Shown here: positions 26,038 through 44,455 of the stretch, piece by piece
How positions within the stretch are numbered: the stretch's first letter is position 1
Layout of the letters: each line of letters starts with the position of its first letter
NCBI GenBank assembly: GCA_963722305.1
Contig: CAVRKE010000001.1
Span: 181,529 to 245,528, forward strand
Reading direction: 5' to 3'
Source: Candidatus Levyibacteriota bacterium
GTDB taxonomy: Bacteria > Patescibacteriota > Microgenomatia > Levybacterales > UBA12049
DNA length: 64,000 nt
Translations under genes and position numbers: made by a program
Notes under the pieces: generated by a model
The model's database searches: none
What the model was told of the DNA's origin: nothing
What the model saw: the letters and a program-made list of their open reading frames with translations, nothing else

Positions 26038-26423
26038 GATCGGTATACCTCCTCAGATACTGGTTCTAGCCAGGTAACATCTCCATAAGTAATTGCTAAG
26101 TGACACATTTTATTTTGCTCGTCGGGATGTGCTCCATGCCAGTGTTCTGTGTTAGCGGGAATATATACGACATCACCCGGATCAGCATTGACTATTTCTT
26201 GCCCCTTTAATTGAACTCGTCCTAGCCCCTCAAGAAAATAGAGTACTTGCTCTCCACTATGTTTATGCCATACCGTACGTGCGCCCTTTTCAAAAGTTAC
26301 CCGTCCTACCATTGATGATCCGGAATCTGCTTTAGTAACGTATTGAATATGAGTTGTACCGGTAAAATTTTCCAGCGCTCCTTGTTGTTCTGGAATATCT
26401 GTAGCGTGAATATGTTTTGTCAT
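26034..26423 (-). CDS. cupin-domain protein
   Basis: 129 aa with two cupin motifs (HKHSGEQVLYFLEG ... GDVVYIPANTEHWHGA). It overlaps the ADH gene by 4 nt, suggesting an operon. Confidence 0.65.
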   Translation of the reverse strand: MTKHIHATDIPEQQGALENFTGTTHIQYVTKADSGSSMVGRVTFEKGARTVWHKHSGEQVLYFLEGLGRVQLKGQEIVNADPGDVVYIPANTEHWHGAHPDEQNKMCHLAITYGDVTWLEPVSEEVYRS

Positions 26424-26496
26424 AAGGTTATACTAACAACTTAAAGTACTTTAAGTCAAGTACTCAATACACTCTAACTTTTTTATAATGTCTCAT

Positions 26497-26540
26497 TATT
26501 GGGTTCGAATCCCAAACGGCGTGAGGCTAGAAATATAGGA
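26497..26540 (+). repeat. tRNA-3'-end-like fragment (TTGGG-TTCGAAT-CCCAA-ACGGCGTG plus 18 nt); an inverted near-identical copy lies at 43171-43211
   Basis: About 39 of 41 nt identical to the reverse complement of 43171-43211. It contains a perfect T-arm but has no tRNA 5' half upstream. Confidence 0.8.
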
Positions 26541-26617
26541 TGCGATAGGATTTTAAGGCAATATCTGGAACTTGTTTTAGCTTCAATTCTGAGGATAATA
26601 CCAAGATGCGTAAAAAG

Positions 26618-26689
26618 TGAGCCGGGTGGGATTCGAACCCACGACCAAGAGCTTAAAAGGCTCCTGCTCTACCGCTGAGCTACCGGCCC
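26618..26689 (-). tRNA. tRNA-Lys (anticodon TTT)
   Basis: Hand-folded cloverleaf: acceptor GGGCCGG/CCGGCTC with one G-U pair, D-arm GCTC-AGCGGTA-GAGC, anticodon loop CTTTTAA, T-arm GTGGG-TTCGAAT-CCCAC, discriminator A. Confidence 0.8.
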
Positions 26690-26864
26690 CAAATGGGATA
26701 AACCTCACGGTTTTTCCCAACGATTTCCCTCTAGGGATAGCAAAATCGGCACTCACAATCCAACAATTTTGCTCGTCTTATTATAGCAACCCATGTTCTC
26801 CTTGACAAGCGAAAGGTAGCGGGTATAGACTGACGTTAGTTTAAAAAAAGAGGGGAGGTGAAAA

Positions 26865-27527
26865 ATGCCTAACATTGGAGTTACTCTAACTGCCTCCTTT
26901 AACAGCGCTTTCTACGCGGTTGTAAATTTTATCCCCAAATTCCTGGCCGGTGCAATTATCTTAATTGTTGGAATAATAATTGCTTCGATATTAAGACAAC
27001 TGATTGTCACTTTATTTAAAGTGTTAAAAGTTGAAAAATATCTGAAAAAATATGGCGTGCCGGAAGCAGGGGAAGCATTTACCTGGACAAACATTCTGGC
27101 GGAATTAGTGAGGTGGTTTGTCATTATTCTTTTCTTAATTCCGACAGCAGATGTTTGGGGTTTGCCGCAAATAATCGCTGTTTTAAATGAATTCCTGACC
27201 TATCTGCCAAATGTTTTTGTCGCTGCGGTGATTGCGATGGTCGGTTTTGCTTTTGCCAGGCTCGCCCATGACATAATTTTGGCGTCGGCAAAAGGAGTTG
27301 ATAATCAAACGGCCGGAACAATTGCAAACGTTACCCGCTGGGCAATCAGCGTTTTTGTCGTTTTGGCAGTTTTAAGCCAACTCGGAGTAGCAACAGACCT
27401 GATTAGAATCTTATTCACAGGATTAGTTGCGATGTTGGCGATTGCCGGAGGAATCGCGTTTGGCTTTGGCGGTCAAAAAACCGCTCAGGATATTGTTGAA
27501 GGAATCAGAAAAAGACTGACCAAATAA
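26865..27527 (+). CDS. membrane protein with repeated conserved TM-helix modules (MscS-N-terminal-like)
   Basis: 220 aa made of two similar halves, each with paired TM helices. A GGAGG ribosome-binding site lies upstream. Confidence 0.4.
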   Translation: MPNIGVTLTASFNSAFYAVVNFIPKFLAGAIILIVGIIIASILRQLIVTLFKVLKVEKYLKKYGVPEAGEAFTWTNILAELVRWFVIILFLIPTADVWGLPQIIAVLNEFLTYLPNVFVAAVIAMVGFAFARLAHDIILASAKGVDNQTAGTIANVTRWAISVFVVLAVLSQLGVATDLIRILFTGLVAMLAIAGGIAFGFGGQKTAQDIVEGIRKRLTK

Positions 27528-27581
27528 GGTTTGCCCTAAGAATGGGTTTAAGGTATAATATTGGTGCTGTTACTAACTAAT

Positions 27582-27655
27582 GGCGCCATCGTCTAGTGGT
27601 CTAGGACACAGGGTTTTCATCCCTGGAATCGTGGGTTCGACTCCCACTGGCGTCA
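27582..27655 (+). tRNA. tRNA-Glu (anticodon TTC)
   Basis: Hand-folded: acceptor GGCGCCA/TGGCGTC with one G-U pair, anticodon stem CAGGG/CCCTG with loop TTTTCAT, T-arm GTGGG-TTCGACT-CCCAC, discriminator A. Confidence 0.8.
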
Positions 27656-27705
27656 CATAATCCTATAGTTGAACTTCTCCCAATTTTCTGCTAGACTCTC
27701 CAATT

Positions 27706-28578
27706 ATGAATTACGAAAATACTCCCACACCTGCTTCCACATGTGAACATACTGAACGTAACTTCCGACATTTTACGCTTTATAAGGATAAACCGCTAGA
27801 TTCAATAAGACATCCTATTCCAGTATTGATTGTGCCCGGCTTTGCCAGCAGCGCAGAATCTTTCGCATTACTGGCTAAAACACTCAATGAGCACGGTTTT
27901 ACAACAATCCGGATTGAGTATGAATTTGGGAGACCCGGTGAACCTAAGAAATGGTTAGTGCTTCCTGATGTTGATAGATTAAAACGAGAGTCAATTATTG
28001 CCGCAATTCAGGCCGAGGGAAAATCTCTTAATGAAGACGGACCAAAACAAGTGATTACGCTTACCCATTCCAAGGGGGCCATGGATGTAGCTCAAGTAGC
28101 AGCTGATAATCCTGAGTTTTTCCAAGGTCAAATCATTTTTATGGATGCTCCCAGTAATTTACGCCCGAGACCTAGTCTAGTAGACGCAATAAGAATGTTA
28201 AGAAACAGTAACTGTCAAGACAAATTAGATAAAGCGAAATTAGCGGCCGAGCGCGGCGAAATAGTCGCCGAGCTGGTACGAGCAAACGATGCTTACGCGC
28301 ACCGGTACGGAGGAATACACCGTCTAATGGACATCGCATCTTCGGCTTGGGGATCAGTGTATGATATTCTTCCCAAACTAACTGAAAAGCGTATTGGGAC
28401 TATCGTTATTGCCCATACGGAAGATGCCTTCAATTCTGTAAAATCTTTTACAGTTGTGCAGAAGCGCGTGGGTGGAATCATTGCGTATCCGGGTATCCAT
28501 AGTGCAATAAAATTTTCACCTGAAGAATGCGAAAGAATTGCCCAATTATTGGAACAACACGAGCCAGTGGCGGCTTAA
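27706..28578 (+). CDS. alpha/beta-hydrolase (lipase-like) protein
   Basis: PVLIVPGFASS is typical of lipase class 2 or PGAP1-like alpha/beta hydrolases. The candidate nucleophile is in LTHSKGA. Confidence 0.45.
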   Translation: MNYENTPTPASTCEHTERNFRHFTLYKDKPLDSIRHPIPVLIVPGFASSAESFALLAKTLNEHGFTTIRIEYEFGRPGEPKKWLVLPDVDRLKRESIIAAIQAEGKSLNEDGPKQVITLTHSKGAMDVAQVAADNPEFFQGQIIFMDAPSNLRPRPSLVDAIRMLRNSNCQDKLDKAKLAAERGEIVAELVRANDAYAHRYGGIHRLMDIASSAWGSVYDILPKLTEKRIGTIVIAHTEDAFNSVKSFTVVQKRVGGIIAYPGIHSAIKFSPEECERIAQLLEQHEPVAA

Positions 28579-28623
28579 TTGATGGTAAAACGTTGGATAT
28601 TCCAGTATAATTAGAATTACCTT

Positions 28624-30381
28624 ATGTGCGGAATTTTTGGTTACATCGGGGAAAAACAAAATGCGGCGGAAATTGTTTTTGAGGGACTAAAGCTTCTTGA
28701 CTATAGAGGTTACGATTCTTGGGGAGTAGCAGTTAAAGTCGGCAGTAAAATTGCCATTGAGAAAAAGACCGGCAAAATCGGAGACAATCAGATTTCCTTG
28801 CCATCAAGTTCACTTGGCATCGGACATACCCGCTGGGCAACCCACGGAGGTGTCACTACCACTAATGCCCACCCGCATTTGGATTGCAGCGGAGAAATTG
28901 CGGTCCTGCATAACGGCATTATTGAAAACTTTCAGGAACTTAAAGATAAACTATCAAAAAACGGTCATAAATTTATATCAGAAACCGATACGGAAGTTGT
29001 AGCCCACTTGGTAGAAGATTTCCTCAAGAAAGAAGACTTCGTCAATTCCGTTAAGGACGCCTTCGGCCTTCTTAAAGGTTTAAGTGCAATTGTGGTTATT
29101 CATACACAGTCTAACCAAATAGTGGTGGCCAAAAATGGCTCGCCGATTGTGATTGGAAAAGGAGAGAACGAATTTTTTGTCGCCTCGGACACCGCCGGAA
29201 TACTGCCTTATACAAAAGACATTCTGTTTCTAAAAGATAACGAGCTGGCCAGTCTTTCCAGCGTTATTGAACTTTATTCTCTGCCTGATTTTAGAAAGAT
29301 TTCTCCGATTTTTGAAAAAATTAACTGGAAAATCGAACAGGCGCAAAAAGGAAATTATCAGCACTTTATGCTTAAGGAAATTCATGAACAGCCAACGGTC
29401 CTCAGAAACCTGGCGACTACTTATGCCGACCAGATTAGCGATCTGGCCGACGCCATTAAACAATCCAAAGGCGTATTTCTGATCGGCAGCGGCAGTGCTT
29501 CGTATGCTTGTCTGGCCGGCACATATTTATTCTCTAAAATTGCCAAAAGACATGTTAACACCGCTGTTGCTTCCGAATTTAATTATCTTGAAGATTTCTT
29601 AAACAAGGATAGTCTGATTATTCCGCTTTCGCAATCCGGAGAGACAATTGATGTTATCGAACCCTTAACCCGCGCCAAGAAAAAGGGAAGTAAGATTATG
29701 GCCTTGGTCAACGTTTTGGGCTCAACTATTTATCGCATGGCAGACTACAAATTGCTGCTGGGTGCCGGGCCGGAAAAAGCAGTCGCCTCGACCAAGGCTT
29801 ACCTCGCCAAAATCGGCATTTTGGTGATGCTCGCTTTTGCTCTGGACGAAAAAATAGAAATCGCCCGCGACATTTTACTCAAAAGCGCGGATGAAATCGA
29901 TAGGTTATTGACGTCTGATAATTTACAAACAATTCAAACCATCGCCCAAAAATTGTCTCAACAAGAACATATCTATCTGATTGGTAGGGGAATGTCTTAT
30001 CCGACCGCTTTAGAAGGAGCAATGAAAATAAAGGAAGTCAGTTACATGCACGCCGAAGGCCTGGCCGGAGGGGAAATCAAGCATGGTCCGATTGCCCTGA
30101 TTGACAAGGGGACTCCCTGTATTGTGTTGGCGCCCAGCGATGAGACCTTTGACGCAATTATGTCTAACGCCATCGAAATTAAATCACGCGGAGGTTATAT
30201 TATCGGCATTTCCTCAAAAGAATCTGCGGTTTTTGATGCATGGATAGAGGTTAAAGAAACCGGCTTACCGCTTTTAACTCATGTTGTACCGATGCAACTT
30301 TTGGGCTACTATCTGGCACTGGTCAAAAATTTTGACCCGGATAAACCCCGCAACCTGGCCAAAAGCGTCACGGTAAAATAA
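28624..30381 (+). CDS. glmS: glutamine--fructose-6-phosphate aminotransferase
   Basis: 585 aa starting MCGIFGY, with an N-terminal Ntn amidotransferase domain and two SIS domains. Confidence 0.95.
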   Translation: MCGIFGYIGEKQNAAEIVFEGLKLLDYRGYDSWGVAVKVGSKIAIEKKTGKIGDNQISLPSSSLGIGHTRWATHGGVTTTNAHPHLDCSGEIAVLHNGIIENFQELKDKLSKNGHKFISETDTEVVAHLVEDFLKKEDFVNSVKDAFGLLKGLSAIVVIHTQSNQIVVAKNGSPIVIGKGENEFFVASDTAGILPYTKDILFLKDNELASLSSVIELYSLPDFRKISPIFEKINWKIEQAQKGNYQHFMLKEIHEQPTVLRNLATTYADQISDLADAIKQSKGVFLIGSGSASYACLAGTYLFSKIAKRHVNTAVASEFNYLEDFLNKDSLIIPLSQSGETIDVIEPLTRAKKKGSKIMALVNVLGSTIYRMADYKLLLGAGPEKAVASTKAYLAKIGILVMLAFALDEKIEIARDILLKSADEIDRLLTSDNLQTIQTIAQKLSQQEHIYLIGRGMSYPTALEGAMKIKEVSYMHAEGLAGGEIKHGPIALIDKGTPCIVLAPSDETFDAIMSNAIEIKSRGGYIIGISSKESAVFDAWIEVKETGLPLLTHVVPMQLLGYYLALVKNFDPDKPRNLAKSVTVK

Positions 30382-30382
30382 A

Positions 30383-31078
30383 TCAGATTTGAGTTAAACC
30401 AGTCAGTATCCCATCTAGCTTAGGAGGTAAGGGTCCAGGACTTCTTGTAAAGATCGTCCTTAAACCAGTTTCTCGCATTACATCTTGAATCATTAGTTCT
30501 CTTGCTGGGTCTAGCAAAAGCCAGTAGGCGTTTACTAGCTCAGGATCCGATTCAGGGTGCTCTCTTAATTGTTGTAGATGTTCAAGATGATGTTTAAGCC
30601 CAATAACTAGTCCTTCTGCGTTTAGATATGAATAAGGTGACTGTATTCGCAGGATGTCATAAAAGTACGCTGGCTTTGATTCAAATGGAACTCCATGAGG
30701 ATTTTGAACCGTATAAGAGGCAGGGGCAACTAGTTTTCCGGTTTCACAATCTACCCATACACTATATGCACCTTGGTGATTTTGAACAGCTGTGATTTCT
30801 ACTGGATAGTAACCGAAAATATATGGAGGAAGTCTGTAGCCTACGGCTTTATCTTCCTCGGTTAGTGGTCTAACTCTATCGTCTGTTAGTAATTTTAAGT
30901 AAGGATATTGTCGCCAATAGTCAACTCTACTTACCGAATACTCCTCAACCATTCTGGCATAGACTATAGCTGGTTCATGCCAGTCTAAAAATGCGTGGTC
31001 TAATCCGATTTCAACAGGGCTTCTCACCATATTTGTAGGCAGTTTTGCTATTCTACTTTTGCTAGGCTTAATTGTCAA
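30383..31078 (-). CDS. hypothetical protein
   Basis: 231-aa ORF with no recognisable motif. It abuts the glmS stop on the opposite strand. Confidence 0.3.
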   Translation of the reverse strand: MTIKPSKSRIAKLPTNMVRSPVEIGLDHAFLDWHEPAIVYARMVEEYSVSRVDYWRQYPYLKLLTDDRVRPLTEEDKAVGYRLPPYIFGYYPVEITAVQNHQGAYSVWVDCETGKLVAPASYTVQNPHGVPFESKPAYFYDILRIQSPYSYLNAEGLVIGLKHHLEHLQQLREHPESDPELVNAYWLLLDPARELMIQDVMRETGLRTIFTRSPGPLPPKLDGILTGLTQI

Positions 31079-31145
31079 ACTAACTCTCTTCCTAACGGTT
31101 GCTATCTCTTGAAAATCGAACTATAATATATTGCTAAAAAAATCT

Positions 31146-34049
31146 ATGGATAAGATTATTATTAAAGGTGCCAGGGAAAATAACCTGAAAAATATTGATA
31201 TTGAGATACCTAAAAATAAACTGGTAGTTTTTACCGGACTGTCCGGCAGCGGTAAATCATCGCTGGCTTTTGACACCATTTACGCCGAAGGACAGCGCAG
31301 GTATGTGGAAAGTTTGTCTTCTTACGCCCGGCAATTTTTGGGGATTATGAAAAAGCCGGATGTCGACTTAATCGAGGGATTGTCGCCGGCAATTTCGATT
31401 GACCAAAAATCGGCCTCGCATAATCCGCGCTCAACTGTCGGCACGGTGACGGAAATTTATGACTATCTCCGACTGCTTTTTGCCAGAATCGGCCATCCGC
31501 ATTGTCCGAAATGCGGCCGGGAAATAAGCAGGATGACCAAAGAGCAGATTACCAATTCCGTCTTCGAGCTTTTGGACAGACAAACTGCCAAAAACCTAAA
31601 AATTCTAATCTTAGCGCCGATTGTTAAAGACCGAAAAGGCGAATACAGCGAACTGTTTGTGGACCTAAAAAAGCGCGGCTACAAAAAAGCCAGGATTGAC
31701 GGCCAGGTTTTTGATTTTGACGATAATTTTGTTTTGATTAAAACCAACAAACATACCATCGAAACCATTATTGACCAAGTAGTCTTAACTAAAGACACCG
31801 ACAGGGGAAGAATTGCCGCGGATATTGAACAAGGATTGAAATTAGGCAGCGGCGAAATAATTATTTCTATCATTAAAGATAGCGGCTTTACCATTCCCGA
31901 CAAACCGAAAAAAATGGAGGACGAGTTTTTTTCCGAAAAGTTTGCCTGTCCGGTCTGCAATATATTTTTACCGGAAGTAGAACCGCGTATTTTTTCGTTT
32001 AACACACCCCACGGCGCTTGCCCCACCTGCGACGGTTTGGGCACCATCTTAACGGTTGACAGGGATTTGGTGTTTAATAAAAATTTGACAATTAATGAAG
32101 GCGGGATTATGCCGTTGGAAACCGCTTTATCCCACGAAACCTGGTTTTCGCGAACTTTTAAGACTTTTTGCGAAGAAAACGGCATTTCCCTGCAACAGAG
32201 GTTTTCCGACATGCCCGAAGAAAAAAAGGAACTGCTCTTAAACGGAACTGGGGAACAACTCTATTATGTCGAAGGTCAAAACAGGTGGGGCAGAGACACC
32301 GCCATCCAAGAACCATTCAAAGGCGTCCTCTCTTACCTTAAAGAAAAGTATCAGTCAACCGACTCGATGTTTTTAAGATCACAAATTGAAAAATACATGC
32401 GCTACGAAACCTGCAGTGAATGTAAGGGCGCAAGACTTAAAAAAGAAGCCTTGTCGATCACTATTAACAACCAATCGATTGTCGGAGTTTCGGATATGTC
32501 TATTACTGATACCTATCAGTTTTTTAATAACTTAACAAAATTTATCTCCGAGCGGGAAACTAAAATCGGCAATTTAATTTTGAAAGAAATTAAACAAAGG
32601 CTGTCGTTTTTACTGGATGTCGGATTGGATTATCTGACCCTTTCCAGAGGAGCACAAACGCTGGCCGGCGGGGAAGCACAAAGAATACGCTTAGCTTCAC
32701 AAATCGGCAGCGGTTTGACCGGTGTGTTATACGTTTTGGATGAACCCTCAATCGGACTGCACCAAAGAGATAACCAAAAACTAATCGACACTTTAAAAAA
32801 GTTAAGGGATTTGGGTAACACGGTTTTAGTGGTCGAACATGACGAGGAGACCATGAAACAAGCAGACTATATTATCGATTTCGGACCGGGAGCCGGAGAA
32901 AACGGCGGAAAAATAGTTTTTAAGGGAGAGCTTAATGAAATTAAGCATGACTCTTCGTCTCTTACCGGACAATATTTGTCCGGCAAAAAACAGATCAGAT
33001 TAATCGGCAGCGGTCAGGAGAAAATTACTGCCGCCAGTGCCAACGGTAGGGTGTTAAGAATTGAAGGGGCAAGACAACATAACCTTAAAAACATTAATGT
33101 CAACTTTCCCCTTAATAATTTAATCGTTGTGACCGGCGTCTCCGGTTCGGGCAAATCGACCCTCGTCAACGATATTTTATATCACGCGTTGATGCAAAAA
33201 AATAATCCGTACCACCGGCAAAAACCCGGTAAATATACCAACCTCAACGGCTTTGAACACATTAAAAACATTTTTATGATTGACCAATCACCGATTGGCA
33301 GAACTCCACGCAGTAATCCGGCCACCTACATCGGCGCCTTCAGCTATATTCGGGACTTATTTGCCAATACCAAAGATGCCAAAATAAAAGGCTACGGACC
33401 GGGAAGGTTTTCGTTTAACGTCAAGGGCGGGCGGTGTGAAGCCTGTGAAGGAGAAGGCAGAATTAAAATCGAAATGCAATTTCTACCGGACGTTTATATC
33501 ACTTGCGAGGTTTGTAACGGGCTGCAGTATAACCACGAAGCTTTGGAGGTTGAATTTAACCATAAAAATATCGCCGACGTTTTAGACATGAGCGTTTCGG
33601 AAGCGGTTAATTTTTTTGAGTTTGTTCCCGGACTTTCGCATAAGCTCCAAACTTTAAATGACGTCGGGCTTTCCTATATCAAACTTGGCCAGCCCGCACC
33701 GACCCTCTCCGGTGGGGAAGCACAACGCGTCAAACTGGCTGCCGAACTTTCCAAAAAAGGCTCCAATGCCTTATACCTTTTGGACGAGCCGACCACCGGG
33801 CTGCACTTTGCGGACCTGGAGAAACTACTGCATGTGTTAAGAAGACTGGTAGACCTAGGTAATACCGTCATTGTGATTGAGCATAATTTGGATGTGATTA
33901 AAAATGCCGATTACATTATTGACCTAGGCCCTGAAGGCGGAGAAAAAGGCGGAGAGCTGGTGGCCACCGGAACACCAACTGAAATTTCCAAATATGCCAA
34001 TTCTTACACCGGGCAGTTTTTGAAAAAAAGGCTTTACCCTGTTAAATAA
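31146..34049 (+). CDS. uvrA: excinuclease ABC subunit A
   Basis: Two ABC ATPase modules ([18 protein letters not shown]) and Zn-finger Cys clusters. The start is taken at [12 protein letters not shown]. Confidence 0.95.
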
Positions 34050-34111
34050 CCGAGGGTCAATCCCGCTAAACGGGATTATTTAACAGAGTTAAAATACGCT
34101 ATAATGTTTTA

Positions 34112-35956: not shown

Positions 35957-37151
35957 CGTCATTTATGTTGGCAAAGCCAAGAACCTTCGAAGCCGTGTTT
36001 CCTCATATTTTTCCAACAAAGATTTGGGTGAAAAAACCCGGATTCTTGTTTCCCAAATTGCCAAAATCAAAACCCTCGGTGTTACTTCGGAAATTGAGGC
36101 ATTTTTGTTGGAAGAAAGATTAATTAAAAAGTATAAGCCCCATTACAACCTGAAATTAATTGACGATAAGCGTTACCCGAGCTTAAAAATTACCGTCAAA
36201 GATGAATATCCAAAAGTGCTTTTGATAAGAAAACAGTCCGAAGGCGACGGGTCCTTGTATTTTGGCCCGTTCACCAGCACGCAATCACTCAGAAGTGTTT
36301 TAAAAATACTGAGGAGAATTTTTCCTTATCAGGCAGTTGCAAATCATCCTCACAAGCTTTGTTTGTATTATCATTTGGGCCTTTGTCCGTGTCCTTCGGT
36401 GACAAAAGACAAAACTTACAAACAAACAATTAGCCACATTATTGATTTTCTAAACGGCAATACCAAAAAAGTTATCAAAGACTTGGAAAAAGAAAGAAAT
36501 GCCTTTAGTAAAGAGGAGCTCTACGAAGAAGCAAAGGGCAGACAAAGAAAAATCGATGCCATCAAATTAATTACCAGTACTGTTTATCAGCCGTTTGAAT
36601 ACGAGTTAAATCCAAATTTGCGTTTCGACGTTATTCAAAAGAACTTAAATGAACTCAAAGATATTTTAAATAATCATGGCGTTGGAGTTAAGGACTTAAA
36701 ACGGATTGAATGCTACGATATTTCAAATACCTCCGGGCTAAACGCCACCGGCTCGATGGTAGTGTTTAGTAACGGCGAAAAAGATTCTTCCGCTTACCGC
36801 AGATTTAAAATCCGCAAGGACTATGCTAAAAAACCAAACGATTTTGCCATGCTACAGGAAGTGCTGCAAAGAAGGTTAAAACACGCCGAGTGGCCAACCC
36901 CTTCCTTAATTATCGTTGACGGCGGAAAAGGACAAGTTTCATCGGCCAGAGAGGTGATTGCCCAAAACGGAAAAATTCCTTTAATCGGCCTGGCCAAAAG
37001 AGAAGAAACGATTATCACCGAAGATTTACAGGAAATAAGCATCCCGAAAAGTTCAAAGGCTCTGCGCTTAATCATGCAGCTTCGGGATGAGGCGCACCGT
37101 TTCGCCATTACTTACCACAAGAAATTAAGAGCCAGTTTCATTTTCTCGTAA
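35880..37151 (+). CDS. uvrC: excinuclease ABC subunit C (short form)
   Basis: 423 aa with the GIY-YIG domain (GVYLFLNKKSDVIYVGKAKNLRSR), a Cys-rich region and an RNase-H-like endonuclease domain (GLAKREE...DEAHRFA). The C-terminal (HhH)2 domain is absent. It uses an alternative TTG/GTG start and overlaps the preceding gene. Confidence 0.8.
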   Translation: MLVSVSSYRLLPTYSGVYLFLNKKSDVIYVGKAKNLRSRVSSYFSNKDLGEKTRILVSQIAKIKTLGVTSEIEAFLLEERLIKKYKPHYNLKLIDDKRYPSLKITVKDEYPKVLLIRKQSEGDGSLYFGPFTSTQSLRSVLKILRRIFPYQAVANHPHKLCLYYHLGLCPCPSVTKDKTYKQTISHIIDFLNGNTKKVIKDLEKERNAFSKEELYEEAKGRQRKIDAIKLITSTVYQPFEYELNPNLRFDVIQKNLNELKDILNNHGVGVKDLKRIECYDISNTSGLNATGSMVVFSNGEKDSSAYRRFKIRKDYAKKPNDFAMLQEVLQRRLKHAEWPTPSLIIVDGGKGQVSSAREVIAQNGKIPLIGLAKREETIITEDLQEISIPKSSKALRLIMQLRDEAHRFAITYHKKLRASFIFS

Positions 37152-38505
37152 CGTCATATTCGTAAGGAAAGTAGAGGAAAGTGGCAGGTGAATCATCAAG
37201 CAAGTATTTTTGAAAATCCGCATAGATTTGCTTTCGTTCACCAATATCAGTCGTTTGTCTGCCGTCCTCTAGCAATTTATCGATCCTTAAATTTTTGTAA
37301 TTGGTGATATTGTTCATGTTTATCTGCGAAGAGTGCCAAAGAGTATACTGGTCGGGATCGTTGGCCACATTAAATTCCCCCAAATAAACTTGAAAATTAG
37401 CAGGAAAAGAATCAACTATCTTGACGTTGGTTTCTATCCCGACTTTTTTCCATAAAGCTTTTATTTGGTAAGCAAGATTTCGATATTTTCGCAAAGCTTT
37501 CATTTCCAAGACGATTCCGCCGCTTTGTGTAGAACTTTCCGACTCACTAAGTAACAGCTTTGCATGATCAAAATCCTGCTGGTAAGTAGTTAGACCATCT
37601 TCAGAGACCCAAGATAGAGGCGAAAACGGACCGTAATTCCGTTGACCGCTTACAAAGCTATCCGGCATGGTATACGACATTGCTTCCCTTAAGCGCTTAT
37701 CGGACAACATTTTGTCTTGGATGTTATAGAAAATAGTTACTAAATCAGAGTAATTAGTATTTTTAGTAATGCCTGCATTGGCAAAAGAAGCTAAATTACT
37801 ATTCATTACTTTTAAGTCTTTTACTCCGACAATTTTATCAACTTCACCCAGAGCAAAGGCCGTTTTTAAAGACTCTTCCGTCGGGTAGAACTGATAAACA
37901 ATTTCGTTACTTTTTCCCTTGACTGAAACGAGGCTGATTGACTGAACAAAATTGCCGTTAAGATTAACCGACTGTACGCGGTAATCGCCAATTCCGACAA
38001 AACCGTTTTTAAATATCGGCCTCGAAACGGTTACTAAAAAAGGCGAGTAAGCTTCTTTTAAGTTAAAAACGATGGTATAAGCGTTGGGTTTTTCTACCGA
38101 AACATCTAAGAAATTATACCTGACCTGATCGGAATTAAAAGCAGTACCGTCGCTAAACACCACACCCTTTTTCAAGTGGAACACGTAAGTTTTGCCATTG
38201 TTCTCTATTTCCCAGGACGAAGCCAGATCGGGCTTAACAGTATCATCCTTGGCAATAGAAGTTAACCCTTGAGAAACTTCGCTCAGAATTGATGAGGGTA
38301 AAGTATCAATGGTATAGGCGCCGGTCATCCCAACCGTTCTTTGCTGCGTAAACGGAATTAGGGGAATAAAGTAATTTACCCCAAATCTCAAAATAAAAAA
38401 AACCGCCAGTCCCAAGACAAAAGAAATGAAAATGGTTTTTCGCCATTTCTTTAAATATGCTTTTAAAAGCCACGTTATTAAACGCCTTCTTTTCAGAAAA
38501 ATCAT
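37138..38505 (-). CDS. solute-binding protein family 5-like (peptide/nickel ABC-type SBP), membrane-anchored
   Basis: 455 aa with an N-terminal TM anchor and SBP_bac_5-like pattern. No cognate permease or ATPase lies adjacent. Confidence 0.45.
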   Translation of the reverse strand: MIFLKRRRLITWLLKAYLKKWRKTIFISFVLGLAVFFILRFGVNYFIPLIPFTQQRTVGMTGAYTIDTLPSSILSEVSQGLTSIAKDDTVKPDLASSWEIENNGKTYVFHLKKGVVFSDGTAFNSDQVRYNFLDVSVEKPNAYTIVFNLKEAYSPFLVTVSRPIFKNGFVGIGDYRVQSVNLNGNFVQSISLVSVKGKSNEIVYQFYPTEESLKTAFALGEVDKIVGVKDLKVMNSNLASFANAGITKNTNYSDLVTIFYNIQDKMLSDKRLREAMSYTMPDSFVSGQRNYGPFSPLSWVSEDGLTTYQQDFDHAKLLLSESESSTQSGGIVLEMKALRKYRNLAYQIKALWKKVGIETNVKIVDSFPANFQVYLGEFNVANDPDQYTLWHSSQINMNNITNYKNLRIDKLLEDGRQTTDIGERKQIYADFQKYLLDDSPATFLYFPYEYDVTRK

Positions 38506-38508
38506 AAT

Positions 38509-38727
38509 CTACTTTAAGGGGAGAAGAAGAAGCAGAGAAATCAAGGCAAAAATTACAGCCGTTGCAACCGTTGCCCACATCAGTAATTTCTCTAAACTTC
38601 TTTTGCTTCGGTAAAACTCGCCTGTTCCGCCAAAAGCACCGGACAATCCGCTTCCCTGCATTTGCAATAAAATAAGAGTGATAAGTATAACTGCGGCAAC
38701 AATTTCAAGAATATTGAGAATTATCAT
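38509..38727 (-). CDS. secG: preprotein translocase subunit SecG
   Basis: 72 aa with two TM helices flanking the Gly-rich loop LLQMQGSGLSGAFGG. Confidence 0.6.
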   Translation of the reverse strand: MIILNILEIVAAVILITLILLQMQGSGLSGAFGGTGEFYRSKRSLEKLLMWATVATAVIFALISLLLLLPLK

Positions 38728-38869
38728 TAAGCTTAATTATAACTTTTTTAGCACGGCTTTTGCAAGTTGAGCGAGCTTAAAGCGAAGCGAAATGGTTTGG
38801 CGAAGCCAAATCCATATTTAATAAAGTTTTTAGAAGAGTAAATAATAAGCCAAAGAGTTTCGAAATGTC

Positions 38870-39271
38870 TTATTTAATTAGCCAACCAAGTAGCGTTACA
38901 ATCAGCGACTGGAGAAGTGATACCAAGACAAAAGCAAAAAAAGTATTAAAGTAAATTTTGGGTACTACAAATCCGGCAAAAGAAATTCCGGAAAAAGTGA
39001 ATGAAGAAATCACTATCCCGACCACCAAAACAGTCAAAACGTAAAAAATTATGACATTAATCACAAAAGAAAATAAACCCAAAGTAATAATATTCAAAGG
39101 TAAAGAAAGAAGACTTAAAACCGGCTTTAGGATTTTTAGAAGCAGGGTCAAGACAAAACCGGCAACCAGCAATGTGATTAAACCACCATAAATCTTCATG
39201 CCGGAAATGAACTGTGAGATTAAAAATATCGAAAAAGCATTGAACAGGGTATTCCTTAAAAGTCCTTTCAC
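38870..39271 (-). CDS. DUF360 / phage-holin-4-like small membrane protein
   Basis: 133 aa with four predicted TM helices and a size and topology typical of the family. Low certainty. Confidence 0.35.
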   Translation of the reverse strand: MKGLLRNTLFNAFSIFLISQFISGMKIYGGLITLLVAGFVLTLLLKILKPVLSLLSLPLNIITLGLFSFVINVIIFYVLTVLVVGIVISSFTFSGISFAGFVVPKIYFNTFFAFVLVSLLQSLIVTLLGWLIK

Positions 39272-39357
39272 TCTAAATTCATGCTAGCAGATGAAGAAAA
39301 TAGTGTCAATTATTTGTGGGTTGCATTGAATCGCTTTTGAGCGTATATTATTGTCTT

Positions 39358-40464
39358 ATGAACGATATCAAATGCCCTTATTGTCACAAAACTTTTGAAT
39401 TGTCTGCGGCGTTAAAGCACGCATTTGAAGAAAAAGCGAGAAATGAAGAAAAAGCAAAAGCAAAAGAAGAAATTGAAAAAATTAGAATTCAAACGCAACA
39501 AGATTTAGAGAAAAAGCTACGTGTAGAATTCGAAAATAGAAATAAATCATCAAAGTTACTTCTCGAAGAGGCAGAAAAAAAGCGCAAAGCAGCCGAGGAA
39601 AAACTAATAGAAAGCGAAAAGGAAAGATTAGGAAGAGAAGAAAAAATAAAACTAGAAGCTGAAAAAAATGTATCTGATAAGGCTAGGTTGGAAAAGCTTG
39701 AGTATGAAAAGAAACTTAACGACATGCAAAAAGCTTTAGAGGTTGCTCAAAGCAAGGGTAAGCAAGGATCACAACAACTTCAAGGAGATGTGTTAGAAAA
39801 AGACCTCGAAGAACGATTGAGAACTGCGTTTCCAAATGATGATTTCAGGCCTGTTCCTACCGGAATAAGAGGAGGAGATATTATCCAAGAAGTAAAGAAT
39901 AAACACGGTAACAGCGCAGGCCTTATTCTTTGGGAGGCAAAAAGAACTAAAGCCTGGCAAAAAGATTGGTTAGCAAAACTTAAGGAAGATATGAGGAATA
40001 TAAATGCCAGTGATTGCATTCTAGTATCTGATGTCTTACCAACGGGCGTTAAAATTTACGATAGAATAGAAAATGCTTGGGTAACATCTTATGAATATGC
40101 AATAAAACTTGCCTCAGTTGTTCGTTTCGGTTTGTTGAACGTTGCAATCGCAAAATCATCTGCTTCCCACACGGATGAACAGCTAAAAGAACTTTATGAC
40201 GTCATCACCAGTGACTCTTTCAGGCAGATGTTTGAGGCAAGAGACGAGATCATTGATGCTTTAAAGCAAGAGCTCGATGCAGACAAAAGAAGCGCGGAAA
40301 AACGTTGGAAAAGACAGGGAGCATATATAGAGAAACTTGCAAGAAATAATAGTCAACTATATGGAGAGCTAGAAGCTCACATACCATCTCTTAAACCCCT
40401 GAAAGAACCTAACAATCTAAGAATCGAAAGCGGAAATGAAGAAGAACAGGAAACCCTCGTATAA
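39358..40464 (+). CDS. DUF2130-like protein: N-terminal zinc ribbon, long coiled coil and a C-terminal PD-(D/E)xK-like module
   Basis: CPYCHKTF opens a Zn ribbon. Residues 30-170 form an E/K-rich coiled coil. The C-terminus has GGDIIQEV...ILWEAKRTK, compatible with a D...ExK nuclease core (inference). The start is taken at MNDIKCPYC. Confidence 0.45.
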   Translation: MNDIKCPYCHKTFELSAALKHAFEEKARNEEKAKAKEEIEKIRIQTQQDLEKKLRVEFENRNKSSKLLLEEAEKKRKAAEEKLIESEKERLGREEKIKLEAEKNVSDKARLEKLEYEKKLNDMQKALEVAQSKGKQGSQQLQGDVLEKDLEERLRTAFPNDDFRPVPTGIRGGDIIQEVKNKHGNSAGLILWEAKRTKAWQKDWLAKLKEDMRNINASDCILVSDVLPTGVKIYDRIENAWVTSYEYAIKLASVVRFGLLNVAIAKSSASHTDEQLKELYDVITSDSFRQMFEARDEIIDALKQELDADKRSAEKRWKRQGAYIEKLARNNSQLYGELEAHIPSLKPLKEPNNLRIESGNEEEQETLV

Positions 40465-41065
40465 GTTTGAACGCGAACTTCTGGAAAGCGGTTATGATTT
40501 GGTTTTTGGTCTGGATGAAGTGGGCAGGGGCAGTTTTGCCGGACCGTTGGTGGCTTCGGCTGTTGCTTTTGAAAAGGAGTTTCGAACAACATGGTTTAAA
40601 GAATTGAATGACTCAAAACTTTTGACAGCCAAAAAGCGCGAGCATTTGTCAAAATTGATCTTGAACAACGCCAAATGCTTTACGGAAATTATTGAGGTTG
40701 AAACAATTAATAAAATCGGAGTAGGGGAGTGTAATCGGTTAATTTTTGAAAGACTGATAAAAAGGGTATTAAGTGAACATAAAGGGAATATTCACTTTTT
40801 AATTGACGGTAATCGAAAAAAAATCAGCAGAAAGAATTTACATTTTATTGTCAAAGGGGACCGAAAAATTATTTCCATTGCCGCTGCTTCAATCGTTGCC
40901 AAAGTTCATCGGGATAAATTGATGAGAAAGTTAGGTAAAGAATTTCCGGGCTACAATTTTGCCAAAAATAAGGGCTACGGCACCAAATTCCACCGTGAAG
41001 CAATCAAAAAACTGGGGTTATGCGAAATGCATAGGAAGTCGTTTAACCTCACAAAATTTACCTAA
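40436..41065 (+). CDS. rnhB: ribonuclease HII
   Basis: The DLVFGLDEVGRGSFAGPLVASAV catalytic N-terminus is present. 209 aa. Confidence 0.9.
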   Translation: MKKNRKPSYKFERELLESGYDLVFGLDEVGRGSFAGPLVASAVAFEKEFRTTWFKELNDSKLLTAKKREHLSKLILNNAKCFTEIIEVETINKIGVGECNRLIFERLIKRVLSEHKGNIHFLIDGNRKKISRKNLHFIVKGDRKIISIAAASIVAKVHRDKLMRKLGKEFPGYNFAKNKGYGTKFHREAIKKLGLCEMHRKSFNLTKFT

Positions 41066-41071
41066 AATTAA

Positions 41072-42670
41072 TTACCTAACGTTCGGACTTTCAAACTTTA
41101 CCCTAGGAATAACAAGATGTATTGTTTCTTTGGTTTTGGGATTTGTGTACTCAACTATTTCAAGTATCTTCTTTGCATCTTTTGCGTAGCCGTTAATGAG
41201 CGCGTCCATATCCCAAATTCTAATTAGAACCTTTCCACTGGATGGCATAGTATCCAAAGCCTGCTGTAATCCATATTGAAAATTATGAATTCCAAAATTT
41301 GGATTTTTCCATCCCTTGCCCTGAAGCTCCGTGTACTCAACCCCGATACCATATTTCTTTCTAAATTCATCAACTTTTGCAAATTTTCCACCAATGGGAG
41401 CAAACATTCCGAACGGGCTAAGTATTTCATCCCAGGTCTCCGGCCCCATTTGCCCAACTACGGGAGCATTCAACAAATCAGCTTTACCAACCAGTGTATT
41501 TACTGAAGCAATGTCCGTATAAATGTCCCAACCAAAAATAAGTTTCTTTGGATCTACGCCTTCGTTTATCAACTCTTCAAACAAATTCAAAACTGCATCA
41601 ACGTTAAGAGGACCGGCGGAATTTACTAATACCTTTGCGTTAGGGAATGTTTCCATTCCTTGGTATATCAATTCTTTCATATACTCCTTATCTATTGTCC
41701 AACCACGGTTCCCAAAGCTTTGGAACGGTTCGTTTTCTGGCTGGATAATTTTTATTGCGTTTAATTGTTCCTGAGTATAATTTTGCTTCAAATAACTAAA
41801 TAGTTTTTTAGTGTAATCGATTCCGGCTTTTGCTAATGCACTGTCTTTTGTAATAACACCGCCGTCAGGCGGAACATCAACGCTTTCCAGTACTTCATCC
41901 GGTTGAAAAGTCTCGGGATTATTCGGATTTTTATCTGGACCGTAAGCTAAAGCAATATTAATATTATTGGCAATCATGTAATCGAAAAACGGTTTGTAAT
42001 AACCGAAGTCTATATTTCCGTTTGCATCAACTGCATTTTGCCAACGAATTCCAATACGAATATCGTTGAAGTTATATTGCTCATGCATTTTCCGCAGCAT
42101 TACCATTGCTTTTTCCGGAGTTGCGAATATTTCCGGAATGAAGGTCGTACCGAAATCTACTCTAGAAAGAGCTTCCTGGTTTTCCTTTATGAAATCCTGC
42201 GTAAAAAGTTGCGATGTCCTCAGCTCCTGACTGTTCTTATCTAAGGCCGGTTTTACAATACCAAATGTATAAGTAAGCGCCAAGCCGACGCTGGCAAGTG
42301 TCGCAATAACTTTTTTCGTTTTTAACTTATTTTTAAGGAATTCGACTACTGTGTTTACTTTTGTTTCAAAAACGTTATTATCGATGCTTTTGTCTGCAAC
42401 ATATAGAACTTCTTCTCCCGCCTCCCAGGGTATCGGTTTTTCCCGTAGATCTTGTTGGGGATTAGATGGCAATTCCACAATAACAACTTCCGAAAAATCG
42501 CCTGCTATCCGCGCCAAAGCTGCTTCTCCAGTTTGGCCAAAAGAAACGTCCGAACTGTTACGCCAACGAAAAGGAAATATTCTTGCGGATGGCGTTTCCG
42601 AAACGTTTTTTCTCGGCCCAGCATACAGATGGTGTTGGTTAAACCGGGGTAGACGAATTATGTTTGGCAA
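41072..42670 (-). CDS. clan GH-A glycoside-hydrolase-like protein with an N-terminal membrane anchor (paralogue-like to the gene at 14351-15523)
   Basis: ENEP acid/base-like motif (IIQPENEPFQSFGNRGW) and an N-terminal hydrophobic anchor (KKVIATLASVGLALTYTF). The annotated N-terminus is probably over-extended. Confidence 0.4.
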   Translation of the reverse strand: MPNIIRLPRFNQHHLYAGPRKNVSETPSARIFPFRWRNSSDVSFGQTGEAALARIAGDFSEVVIVELPSNPQQDLREKPIPWEAGEEVLYVADKSIDNNVFETKVNTVVEFLKNKLKTKKVIATLASVGLALTYTFGIVKPALDKNSQELRTSQLFTQDFIKENQEALSRVDFGTTFIPEIFATPEKAMVMLRKMHEQYNFNDIRIGIRWQNAVDANGNIDFGYYKPFFDYMIANNINIALAYGPDKNPNNPETFQPDEVLESVDVPPDGGVITKDSALAKAGIDYTKKLFSYLKQNYTQEQLNAIKIIQPENEPFQSFGNRGWTIDKEYMKELIYQGMETFPNAKVLVNSAGPLNVDAVLNLFEELINEGVDPKKLIFGWDIYTDIASVNTLVGKADLLNAPVVGQMGPETWDEILSPFGMFAPIGGKFAKVDEFRKKYGIGVEYTELQGKGWKNPNFGIHNFQYGLQQALDTMPSSGKVLIRIWDMDALINGYAKDAKKILEIVEYTNPKTKETIHLVIPRVKFESPNVR

Positions 42671-42829
42671 TTCTCCTTTTCCATGTACCCAGGGGACTTG
42701 TCTTCCTGCCCGTCTTTCCGCTGCTACTAGATTATTCCTCCCCGCAAAACCAATAAGTTCTTATGTTTACACATAACGTTTTGGGCAAGATAATTCGATT
42801 GGGGCAACAAATATAACCATTGGCTTTTG

Positions 42830-42903
42830 CACGCCTGAGAGGACTCGAACCCCCAACCCCTTCGTCCGAAGCGAAGTGCTCTATCCAATTGAGCTACAGG
42901 CGC
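42830..42903 (-). tRNA. tRNA-Arg (anticodon TCG)
   Basis: Hand-folded: acceptor GCGCCTG/CAGGCGT, D-arm GCTC-AATTGGATA-GAGC, anticodon stem CTTCG/CGAAG with loop CTTCGGA, T-loop TTCGAGT. The T-stem uses G-U pairs. Confidence 0.7.
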
Positions 42904-43058
42904 ATGCTGTTAGTATACTAAATTTATAATTGTTTATAAAGTTCGGTAGAAGATTTTTAAAAAGTAGGATATAATATGGTATCAATGATTTTGCAATTGC
43001 AAAGCTTGTGTGCGGGCCCGCCCGACACGCAAGACGAGCTTGTGAAGTCGTTGCGGGC

Positions 43059-43131
43059 GGGCCGCTAGCTCAACTGGCAGAGCAATTCCCTCTTAAGGAA
43101 TAGGTTCAGGGTTCGACTCCCTGGCGGCTCA
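43059..43131 (+). tRNA. tRNA-Lys (anticodon CTT)
   Basis: Hand-folded: acceptor GGGCCGC/GCGGCTC, D-arm GCTC-AACTGGCA-GAGC, anticodon stem ATTCC/GGAAT with loop CTCTTAA, T-arm CAGGG-TTCGACT-CCCTG. Confidence 0.8.
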
Positions 43132-43170
43132 CTAATTTTACCATCGTTAATTTAGCCTCGAATTGTAGCA

Positions 43171-43211
43171 AATTTATCCTATATTTCTAGCCTCACGCCG
43201 TCTGGGATTCG
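43171..43211 (-). repeat. inverted copy of the tRNA-3'-end-like repeat found at 26497-26540
   Basis: The reverse complement reads GTTCGAATCCCAGACGGCGTGAGGCTAGAAATATAGGAT, about 39 of 41 identical to the copy at 26.5 kb. It lies 40 bp downstream of tRNA-Lys-CTT. Confidence 0.8.
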
Positions 43212-43274
43212 AACACACCAAAGATATGCCCTATAGTTTGACAATACTGCACATTATGTGATAAAATTTGTCAT

Positions 43275-44228
43275 ATGTTAAATCAATCACCTGAAGGATA
43301 TAGACAAGGAATTCCAATAGAAACACCTGGTTTTAGCGGAGATGCTTCTTCGCATACAGATGGTGTTGTAACCAGAATTAATCGTAGAGATTATATGCCT
43401 GGATTTTTAGAAACTACCCCAGTCACAATAATTCAACATAATCCTAATGGACAACTTGTTTTTAGCACAGAATATGATAAACGGCAGCTTACGCCCGAAG
43501 AAAATATGGCAATTGATGAACAACTTAAAGGTCCTGATACCATAGTTGAGATACTTCCTGACGGTGAAATTAGCATAGATCGCGGTTCAGCTCTTGAAAA
43601 TGGGTCACCAGCTTGGTTCACTCAGTGTAAAGAATTAGGTGTTAAAAGAGCCTTAAAAGAAGCAGCAGTTTTAGAAGCATTAACTGGATTCCAGAACGTA
43701 TTTTGGGGACCACATATTGGAAAAATAACTCCAATTATGGTCGTAGATCCTGATTCTGGTATTGAATATCAGACAGGCATCAGATTAAGTCATGATTTTC
43801 CTTGGACTACTACTGAAAAAAGAAAATTTAGAAGACCGAAAGCTATTCCGATTGTGGGCAAAAATGTTGTAGACATTACCTATAAAGCAACTGAAGCTAC
43901 TAAAGATTCAGGAGTTTTAGATACTGGTAACATATATTATCGTGAGAAATCAGCTGTAATAAGTATTCTTGCATTTCTTGATCCAAATGAACTTGAAGGT
44001 ATAGAAAATCCAACCACTTATAACCCTGATGATTTAAGATTTTTAAGTAAATTAGGAATTGGTTTAAATTTAGCTTTTGATCCGCAGCGTTTTAAACCGG
44101 ATAAAGATTTGACCTTAAAAATAGATGGAATTTTACAACGATTCGGAGATTTTACCGTATCACTGGGAACAAATGCTCCGCAACTAATCGAAAGGGGAAC
44201 AGAAAGAGCTAAAACATCTGTTAAGTAA
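43275..44228 (+). CDS. hypothetical protein
   Basis: 317-aa ORF with no recognisable motif, immediately upstream of the Fic gene. Confidence 0.3.
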   Translation: MLNQSPEGYRQGIPIETPGFSGDASSHTDGVVTRINRRDYMPGFLETTPVTIIQHNPNGQLVFSTEYDKRQLTPEENMAIDEQLKGPDTIVEILPDGEISIDRGSALENGSPAWFTQCKELGVKRALKEAAVLEALTGFQNVFWGPHIGKITPIMVVDPDSGIEYQTGIRLSHDFPWTTTEKRKFRRPKAIPIVGKNVVDITYKATEATKDSGVLDTGNIYYREKSAVISILAFLDPNELEGIENPTTYNPDDLRFLSKLGIGLNLAFDPQRFKPDKDLTLKIDGILQRFGDFTVSLGTNAPQLIERGTERAKTSVK

Positions 44229-44455
44229 TTAAAATTTTTGTAACTAACCTATAAAAAGCTTTTTAATTTAAGAAAATCAAACATTTCCAGAGCCACTGTT
44301 TCGTTTTCAATCCTTCTCATAATCTCCCGGCTTTTGTTTTGAGAGAAGATATTTAAACTTCCTTCCCAAAGGAATTGACTTTCTCATAGCTTTTTGCTAA
44401 ACTAGATTTAGACTAATTATTAGACCAATAGCTAGACTAATAATAGACTGATTTT

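Follow-up and report, generated by a model that had tools for sequence, protein, structure and literature searches.

Mirror-image tRNA-like repeats at two tRNA-Lys genes of a Levybacteria genome probably mark two decayed integrative islands

Classical tRNA islands end distally with a fragment that repeats the target tRNA in direct orientation, and their integrase gene is the neighbor of the tRNA (PMC4383910). In streptococci, integrative and conjugative elements (ICEs), integrative and mobilizable elements (IMEs) and cis-mobilizable elements (CIMEs) are found at the 3' end of tRNA-Lys(CTT), with tyrosine integrases, defined attachment (att) sites and experimentally shown excision (PMC5704250), and the tycheposons of Prochlorococcus use tyrosine or large serine recombinases, with new arrivals pushing older elements inward (bioRxiv 10.1101/2020.12.28.424599). 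Here, we describe a 64-kb stretch of bacterial DNA (the window) in which a short inverted repeat with a tRNA-like part, I3, stands beside each of two tRNA-Lys genes. Its lineage, Candidatus Levybacteria/Patescibacteria, was recognized from homologues of its mechanosensitive-channel-like (MS) protein. The locus appears to fit what is known of islands at tRNA genes, with their scattered partial tRNAs and their decayed cis-mobilizable remnants, and also the streptococcal tRNA-Lys hot spot (PMC4383910, PMC5704250, bioRxiv 10.1101/2020.12.28.424599). With modest confidence, we consider that the window carries, 3' of its two tRNA-Lys genes, the remnants of two independent islands, decayed and lacking a recombinase, and that I3 forms the conserved module at the tRNA-proximal end of this family of islands.

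The inverted 41-nt pair described in an earlier note on this DNA is real. There are exactly two occurrences of the 38-mer TTCGAATCCCARACGGCGTGAGGCTAGAAATATAGGAT (26504-26541, +, and 43176-43213, -), and the dinucleotide-shuffled sequence gave 0 matches, with none expected by chance. A repeat search extended the pair to 49 nt at 90% identity (I3L and I3R, Table 1), and the best-conserved core (26500-26541 and 43176-43217) covers 42 nt with 2 mismatches. The mirror layout was also described correctly: I3L (+) is followed after 75 nt by tRNA-Lys-TTT (-), and tRNA-Lys-CTT (+) is followed after 43 nt by I3R (-). I3 is the innermost of three nested inverted pairs; it lies, as previously stated, inside a longer pair (I1, 113 nt, 94%), which is the outermost, and also inside a third pair, I2, which the earlier note had missed. 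Neither I3 copy has a tRNA 5' half, again in agreement with that note. ARAGORN found no tRNA or cloverleaf in either copy, and in a permissive Rfam search the match of I3L was limited to a 17-nt T-arm (11.4 bits, E 8.7, gathering score 29), while I3R had no match.

The repeat nevertheless has a tRNA-derived part, as had been proposed, and its best match is the 3' end of tRNA-Lys-TTT. From the T-stem to CGGC, the I3 segment TGGGTTCGAATCCCA..CGGC agrees with this tRNA at 19 of 21 positions (z ~9, 0/3000 shuffles); the values for the other tRNAs of the window are z 6.5 for tRNA-Glu and z ~4 for tRNA-Lys-CTT and tRNA-Arg. ARAGORN and Rfam together recognize four tRNA genes in the window (Lys-TTT, Glu-TTC, Arg-TCG and Lys-CTT), and the T-loop motif GTTCRANTCC, observed 7 times versus 1.1 expected, is found in these four genes, in the two I3 copies and in a decayed tRNA-Glu at 22350. 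The two copies also have in common 18 nt of non-tRNA sequence and a homologous spacer, since the 43-nt right spacer can be aligned over its full length with ~43 nt on the tRNA-proximal side of the left spacer (z 5.3, 1/2000 shuffles). As part of the reading given above, I3 is probably a tRNA-Lys-TTT-like 3' end relic (T-arm to CGGC), reversed and fused to a conserved GAGGCTARAAATATAGGA box. Several other identities of the repeat were rejected. A 3' exon of an intron-split tRNA does not agree with a copy-to-copy similarity that begins only in the T-stem and with the absence of an upstream anticodon arm; for a structured RNA, the folds compared with shuffles were inconsistent (z -2.0 to +0.8); and for a terminator or promoter, no terminator was predicted and the promoter-like matches differ between the copies.

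The inverted pairs delimit two islands, at 22434-26616 and 43133-45802, which are separated by 16.5 kb of housekeeping DNA including glmS, uvrA, uvrC, rnhB and an SBP gene; the genes in the flanks on either side are accessory. Both islands begin directly after the ...CGGCTCAC terminus of an intact tRNA-Lys, and their outer I1 end reads ...GCTCAC again. Counted from the tRNA, the order is the same in both islands: the CGGCTCAC terminus, the spacer, the I3 module, variable cargo, and a PLD-family gene with the I1 leader. No recombinase was detected in the islands by Pfam, NCBIfam, PHROGs and PADLOC scans of the island genes or by tblastn with the recombinase of L003 (other contigs are given by L numbers), and neither island has kept transfer genes. 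Because both recombinase and transfer genes are missing, the islands resemble decayed cis-mobilizable remnants. They appear to be independent and not a recent duplication of each other, because the divergence between I1L and I1R (93% identity) and between the two PLD 3' ends (76%) equals that from the copies of other genomes. The right I3 module is also nearer to a module in L016 than to the left I3 module.

The position of these islands coincides with a site which is highly variable in the relatives. The unit of tRNA-Lys-TTT (-), MS gene (+) and tRNA-Glu (+) is conserved, and the DNA 3' of tRNA-Lys-TTT is different in every relative. For example, a large serine recombinase (LSR; Resolvase, Recombinase and Zn_ribbon_recom) is encoded in L003 (228-1775) and L040 (3812-5362) by an open reading frame (ORF) that ends inside tRNA-Lys-TTT, C-terminal LSR remnants are kept in L005, L006 and L037, an LSR in L026 (4552-5817, -) converges on the 3' end of tRNA-Glu, and L007 has unrelated genes 3' of tRNA-Lys-TTT. 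In the closest relatives (L017, L018, L036 and L043; 93-95% MS identity), a hydrolase or glmS gene stands directly at the tRNA-Lys-TTT end and I3 is absent; with these core genes at the tRNA end, the relatives show a presence/absence polymorphism with an empty site at tRNA-Lys-TTT. In line with the earlier note, I3 borders DNA that varies from relative to relative at a tRNA integration hot spot. The link to tyrosine integrases made in the same note was not supported: the recombinases at this site in the relatives are LSRs, and the window has neither type.

I3 is also not a classical direct-repeat scar. As it is inverted and proximal, it does not serve as the distal direct repeat, and the candidates for such a repeat are instead the tRNA-Lys 3' terminus and the I1 outer end (GTGAGC...). 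The I1 leader with its PLD gene is found at the edges of variable cargo in L010-L015, L037 and L049, and in L049 the PLD module occurs three times in tandem orientation, giving three PLD-bounded units. The leader (window 22434-22537 and 45699-45802; L010; L013, ~9897-10000) is 92-95% identical between genomes, compared with 79-81% for the PLD coding sequence. Its conservation sets in at GTGA in every case (window, GTGAGC; L013, GTGAGCC; L037, GTGAGCCGG; L010, GTGAAC), and the DNA outside is unrelated. Furthermore, L037 contains a complete 3.3-kb island, in which GTGAGCCGG (a 9-nt repeat), an I1-like leader, a PLD gene and an LSR remnant are followed by the GTGAGCCGG of tRNA-Lys-TTT. Because of the conserved GTGA start and this complete island, the I1 outer end can be read as a candidate distal att-type repeat, and the putative att sites of both islands are placed by such short repeats and the conserved end modules. 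A long tRNA-Lys fragment at the I1 outer end was rejected, as the match is confined to the terminal 6-11 nt.

Other features of the distal module are as follows. The non-coding I1 leader holds a GTGAG...CTCAC stem enclosing a near-perfect hairpin, GGTTCCAG-C-CTGGAACC, and could be a structured leader or a recombination site. The right PLD gene is a pseudogene, of which the leader with the first three codons (in I1R) and the last ~140 nt remain, and the opposite-strand Fic/SoFic-like gene fills its middle. The sequence gives no support for PLD as a homologue of pKM101 Nuc, the sole relevant PDB match, with mitochondrial cardiolipin hydrolase/MitoPLD, being weak. A decayed tRNA-Glu with internal deletions (22340-22400, -), whose 18-mer ATCGTGGGTTCGACTCCC at 22349-22366 is identical to the functional tRNA-Glu, is found at the position where L013 has an intact tRNA-Glu (-) adjoining I1. 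The cargo of L013 comprises HTH, AAA, M23 peptidase, VirB4/TraG-like, TraC-like, PrgI and TrbC pilin genes and a Fic gene. Clusters resembling a type IV secretion system (T4SS), with VirB4/TraG-like DUF87, TraC-like, PrgI, TrbC/T4SS pilin and M23 peptidase genes, lie directly downstream of the PLD gene in L013 (10470-19124) and L049 (13083-18689), and they look like ICE-like elements in Levybacteria. A phage origin of I1 and I3 was rejected, as both patterns are absent from IMG/VR.

The mirror image of the two I3 copies can be traced to a small rearrangement. In a model based on the earlier note, the fragments would be att scars, that is, tRNA 3' ends displaced by tyrosine-integrase recombination, and the 26.5-43.2 kb block would be inverted, possibly reversibly. 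In favor of this model, the fragments stem from a tRNA and stand at the edges of islands, a homologous inversion could take place between inverted repeats of 42-113 nt, and the lineage shows rearrangements with breakpoints at tRNA 3' ends. However, in the chained relatives (L048, L046, L005/L007 and L017) the DNA that begins with tRNA-Lys-CTT, includes uvrA and ends with the hydrolase gene is collinear with that of the window, and its orientation relative to the Obg-side flank is unchanged; therefore, the block is not inverted. Only a cassette of about 1 kb with tRNA-Lys-TTT, the MS gene and tRNA-Glu differs, which is flipped in comparison with L005-L008, L016-L019, L035, L036 and L043. The junctions of this flip lie exactly at the two tRNA 3' ends (shared TCAC): in L036/L017, the tRNA-Lys 3' end adjoins the hydrolase promoter region (...caactataggat), which in the window stands at the tRNA-Glu 3' end instead, and after tRNA-Glu, L016, L019 and L035 continue with the reverse complement of the window from ~19760 downward. 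Since the two tRNA-Lys genes of the relatives are on the same strand, the mirror layout of the window is derived. The I3 copies are mutually inverted because their tRNA-Lys genes point opposite ways, and this opposite orientation is itself derived because the cassette was flipped. An inverted duplication of the cassette was also considered and rejected, as it predicts a second MS gene copy in the islands and none was found.

A reversible inversion is not seen either. In an independent Logan assembly of the same strain from a single sample (ERR11594402), contigs L050 and L051 run through both I3 copies without a branch and have the same flanks there as the window, and L052 is unbranched at the tRNA-Glu/hydrolase junction. 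This one-sample assembly shows no sign of I3 recombinant junctions or of cassette flipping. L051 ends exactly at TCAC, which hinted at a cassette-flip polymorphism, and this candidate was rejected because the partner junction in L052 is unbranched. In addition, an exact scan of 185,579 species-representative genomes found no intact parent tRNA ending in TTCGAATCCCARACGGCGTG; the sole exact match is a chance occurrence within a coding region of a Bdellovibrionales metagenome-assembled genome. No tyrosine integrase was found, the relatives carry serine recombinases, and the copies, which have non-tRNA sequence in common, are also encountered in other genomes. Taken together, the model of att scars around an inverted block is largely refuted, and we regard it as very improbable.

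The occurrence of I3 in other genomes bears on what the module might be. L016 (1801-1885) contains I3 with the 43-nt spacer, 96% identical to the right module of the window. This copy adjoins tRNA-Lys-TTT, not tRNA-Lys-CTT, its cargo consists of two unrelated membrane-protein genes, and the MS gene next to it is only 84% identical. A fourth, diverged copy in L049 (12429-12472; nhmmer profile from the other copies, 41.6 bits, E 4e-11) is located between an 897-aa gene and a diverged I1-like leader with the third PLD gene and the T4SS cluster, with no tRNA nearby; it thus sits between two PLD-bounded islands, one of which has T4SS genes. Being present at another tRNA-Lys and at a tRNA-free junction, and with a common non-tRNA sequence and spacer, the I3 copies are not independent local scars. 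Across the four copies, TTCGAATCC and GAGGCTARAAATATAGGA are conserved, and the acceptor-like ACGGCGT is not conserved in L049.

Such conservation could mean that I3 is a selected functional cis element of the islands and no decaying scar, for example a site for a recombinase or accessory protein (arm-type, or a pseudo-att site that imitates the T-arm of tRNA-Lys), a transfer origin or a regulatory site. TTCGAATCC and GAGGCTARAAATATAGGA are the most conserved segments, and the acceptor-like segment is free to vary in L049. Between genomes, the identity of the module is 94-96%, compared with 84% for the coding gene beside it, and GAGGCTA is found once more in the spacer and, in inverted form, 30 nt downstream in L049. 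However, there are four copies only, recent transfer explains the high identity equally well, the RNA structure and the promoter and terminator predictions are inconsistent as given above, no partner protein was identified, and the spacer of the left copy is without a second box. We consider this role, which is compatible with an end module of decayed islands, quite unlikely. Still less likely is that I3 serves as a docking or recombination site at the tRNA-proximal end of an element family of the Candidate Phyla Radiation (CPR). Such a site would combine a reversed mimic of the tRNA-Lys T-arm and acceptor with a GAGGCTA-type protein-binding box, and LSRs would use it, with crossover at TCAC, for cargo exchange between tRNA-Lys genes, island accretion or cassette flips. 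If this were true, ultra-small genomes would possess a modular system for the exchange of islands. As a separate observation, a CCTATAG motif lies directly 5' of a TTGAC-type -35 in several promoters of the lineage (window 27661-27675 and 43228-43243; trailers of L036, L038 and L032), and the I3 box holds a CCTATAG variant (CCTATATTTCTAG on the other strand). I3 with its spacer was also compared with serine recombinases as a possible decayed C-terminus, and neither tblastn nor shuffle-tested local alignment gave any similarity.

The exact end of the tRNA-like part deserves attention. The identity between I3 and tRNA-Lys-TTT ends at CGGC, and the next 4 nt are TCAC in the tRNA and its reverse complement, GTGA, in I3. 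TCAC is the shortest repeat common to all I1 ends and is also found at the cassette-flip junctions. This switch may be meaningful or a coincidence. It would suit an origin of I3 as a chromosomal trailer relic, which a single aberrant event at the 3' end of tRNA-Lys-TTT produced and which spread afterwards, without being the end of any mobile element. The T-arm palindrome could have allowed a fold-back or a template switch; alternatively, a site-specific exchange in the wrong orientation could have occurred at a TCAC crossover. Gene conversion or horizontal exchange would then have brought the trailer with the relic to tRNA-Lys-CTT and to other strains. The motifs TAGCCTC and CCTATA of the spacer and I3 box are also present in native tRNA-Lys trailers of L022, L036 and L038, and on the two sides of the left island, the decayed tRNA-Glu and the Lys-like relic are oriented as they would be in the ancestral cassette. 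However, these trailer motifs are short and partly generic promoter features, and 61-93 nt of non-palindromic DNA lie between fragment and tRNA. Moreover, the relic is absent from close relatives with 98-100% identical tRNA-Lys-TTT, the L016 copy adjoins the cassette in its ancestral orientation, and the L049 copy stands at a PLD island junction without a tRNA. To such a chromosomal origin, we give a minor chance.

For the favored reading of two decayed islands with I3 as their proximal end module, the following course can be proposed. DNA just downstream of tRNA 3' ends would be a hot spot in this lineage, where integrative elements insert and then decay. The two islands would have arrived by site-specific integration at the shared tRNA-Lys terminus, and I3 would have come in together with them. 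In the window lineage, the cassette of about 1 kb was flipped with breakpoints at the tRNA 3' ends, and the mirrored I3 copies would result from the orientation of the tRNA-Lys genes, which dictates that of the islands.

Several points weigh against this proposal. First, the islands and the whole window are devoid of a serine or tyrosine recombinase or invertase, and integration is therefore inferred rather than shown. Second, the direct repeat between the tRNA-Lys terminus and the I1 outer end is only 6-7 nt long in the window, and over 50 nt the tRNA likeness of the I1 outer end is not significant (z <2.6). Third, the PLD gene of L010-L014 is at a syntenic position after the Obg block, so part of the I1/PLD module could be chromosomal and not mobile. 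Fourth, no empty-site relative was found for the tRNA-Lys-CTT island, the sole comparison, L048, having a different flank. Fifth, the LSR-bearing relatives have the recombinase gene, not I3, at the tRNA-proximal end, and because no homology is detectable between these ends, the I3-type and LSR-type ends may belong to different element families. Finally, I3 is known from four copies in three genomes only, and a reversed tRNA relic 43-75 nt from the tRNA is unpredicted by the classical island model.

The remaining observations concern the cargo and the neighborhood of the islands (Table 1). ORF317 of the right island is an orphan: Pfam, NCBIfam, PHROG, PADLOC and PDB gave no match, and 1.8 billion representative proteins include only 5 homologues; a hidden recombinase was rejected for this gene, as no family, PDB or PHROG match was found. 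Its predicted -10 ends ~7 nt ahead of the ATG, and because of this its transcript may be leaderless. In the left island, a perfect 18-nt palindrome, ACTTAAAGTACTTTAAGT (26439-26456), lies between a TTGACT -35 and a TAGTAT -10 (18-nt spacer; region 26430-26459) upstream of the cupin-ADH-SDR-NAD-binding-MerR operon, which is a MerR-type operator layout. The only transposase or recombinase of the window is an IS30-like transposase (HTH_38 and rve; 18062-19087) between the Obg block and a Zn-ribbon gene. A DsbD/thioredoxin fusion gene (19826-21565) has no counterpart at the loci of the relatives and is bracketed by a 12-nt direct repeat, CCGATTATTAGT (19791-19802 and 21898-21909), which is about at chance level for a 12-mer in 64 kb. 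At 61719-61886, six tandem copies of a 21-nt unit, CTCTAGATGAAAAAGTGGGGG, within an ORF give a 7-residue protein repeat. Among the relatives, L046, L047 and L048 encode an identical 571-aa protein with differing upstream DNA (L046:640-700; L048:1090-1170): L048 has intact tRNA-Lys-CTT and tRNA-Arg genes, and L046/L047 carry an HTH-gene element and keep only the final ~11 nt of tRNA-Arg (TCAGGGGTGCA), a 3' fragment which is a classical scar in the same lineage.

Table 1. Features of the two islands and their surroundings in the window
Feature	Position	Strand	Remarks
I1 pair	22434-22546 / 45690-45802	inverted	113 nt, 94% identical
I2 pair	22848-22988 / 44248-44388	inverted	141 nt, 73% identical; 3' end of PLD-family gene
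Left island	22434-26616		I1L, PLD, oxidoreductase operon, I3L, 75-nt spacer
I1L, conserved PLD leader	22434-22546	+	Outer end GTGAGC, reverse complement of tRNA-Lys 3' terminus
I1L leader, left island	22434-22537
PLD-family gene	22538-22987	+	149 aa
MerR	23004-23477	-
NAD(P)-binding	23481-24137	-
SDR	24156-25001	-
Zn-ADH	25006-26037	-
Cupin	26034-26423	-
I3L, left repeat copy	26493-26541	+	Hairpin TTGGG-TTCGAAT-CCCAA (T-arm-like), then ACGGC, GTGA, box GGCTAGAAATATAGGAT
Left spacer	26542-26616		75 nt, I3L to tRNA-Lys-TTT 3' end
Cassette	26617-27656		tRNA-Lys-TTT (-), MS-channel-like gene (+), tRNA-Glu (+); inverted relative to flanks
tRNA-Lys(TTT)	26617-26689	-	Convergent with I3L; 3' terminus ...CGGCTCAC, proximal boundary of left island
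MS-channel-like gene	26865-27527	+
tRNA-Glu(TTC)	27582-27656	+	ARAGORN, Rfam
tRNA-Arg(TCG)	42829-42903	-	ARAGORN, Rfam
tRNA-Lys(CTT)	43059-43132	+	Convergent with I3R; 3' terminus ...CGGCTCAC
Right island	43133-45802		43-nt spacer, I3R, ORF317, PLD remnant, Fic, I1R
Right spacer	43133-43175		43 nt, tRNA-Lys-CTT 3' end to I3R; together with I3R, 96% identical to L016:1804-1883
I3R, right repeat copy	43176-43224	-	Degenerate T-stem
Orphan ORF317	43275-44228	+
PLD 3' remnant	44248-44388	-
Fic/SoFic-like gene	44456-45664	+	402 aa; in place of PLD gene middle
I1R, second leader copy	45690-45802	-	Retains PLD start codon; outer end ...AGCTCAC at 45796-45802

Mobile elements and genome plasticity are poorly described in CPR/Patescibacteria. 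The locus shows a busy integration hot spot at tRNA-Lys and tRNA-Glu in Levybacteria, with LSRs reading into the tRNA, PLD-bounded islands, some with a T4SS, and decayed remnants that hold cargo of the stress or defence type (the oxidoreductase operon and the Fic gene). It also gives a warning for annotation: mirror-image tRNA relics need not signal an inversion of the DNA between them, as two insertions oriented by their target genes suffice.

Compared with known systems, the locus has both shared and distinct features. As in Islander-type tRNA islands (PMC4383910), the islands are located at tRNA 3' ends, have tRNA-derived fragments at their edges and strain-variable cargo, and have recombinase-bearing versions in relatives. 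In contrast, the clear relic (I3) is proximal and reversed here, the distal repeat has 6-9 nt, the integrase is gone, and the recombinases of the relatives are LSRs. With the CIMEs and tandem accretion of streptococci (PMC5704250), the islands share the loss of integration and transfer genes, candidate att-like bounds, the tRNA-Lys 3' target, tandem arrays (L049) and a T4SS in relatives (L013 and L049). Unlike those, the att sites here are candidates, movement of the islands is putative, the host belongs to the CPR, and a PLD gene with a highly conserved leader stands at the distal end. A streamlined host genome, tRNA-adjacent islands, scattered partial tRNAs, degraded remnants and, in relatives, large serine recombinases are also known from the tycheposons of Prochlorococcus (bioRxiv 10.1101/2020.12.28.424599), but the window islands are without a replication or integration module, their inverted relic is fused to a conserved non-tRNA box, and there is no sequence relationship. 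The Hin/Gin invertases and shufflons are similar in that inverted repeats flank a segment and that a tRNA-bounded 1-kb cassette was inverted here during evolution. They differ in that the window has no invertase gene, one independent assembly shows no heterogeneity, and the 16.6 kb of housekeeping DNA between the I3 copies is not inverted in relatives. What is unusual in this locus is the CPR host, the well-preserved, proximal and reversed relic fused to a conserved box, and the PLD distal marker with a leader better conserved than its gene.

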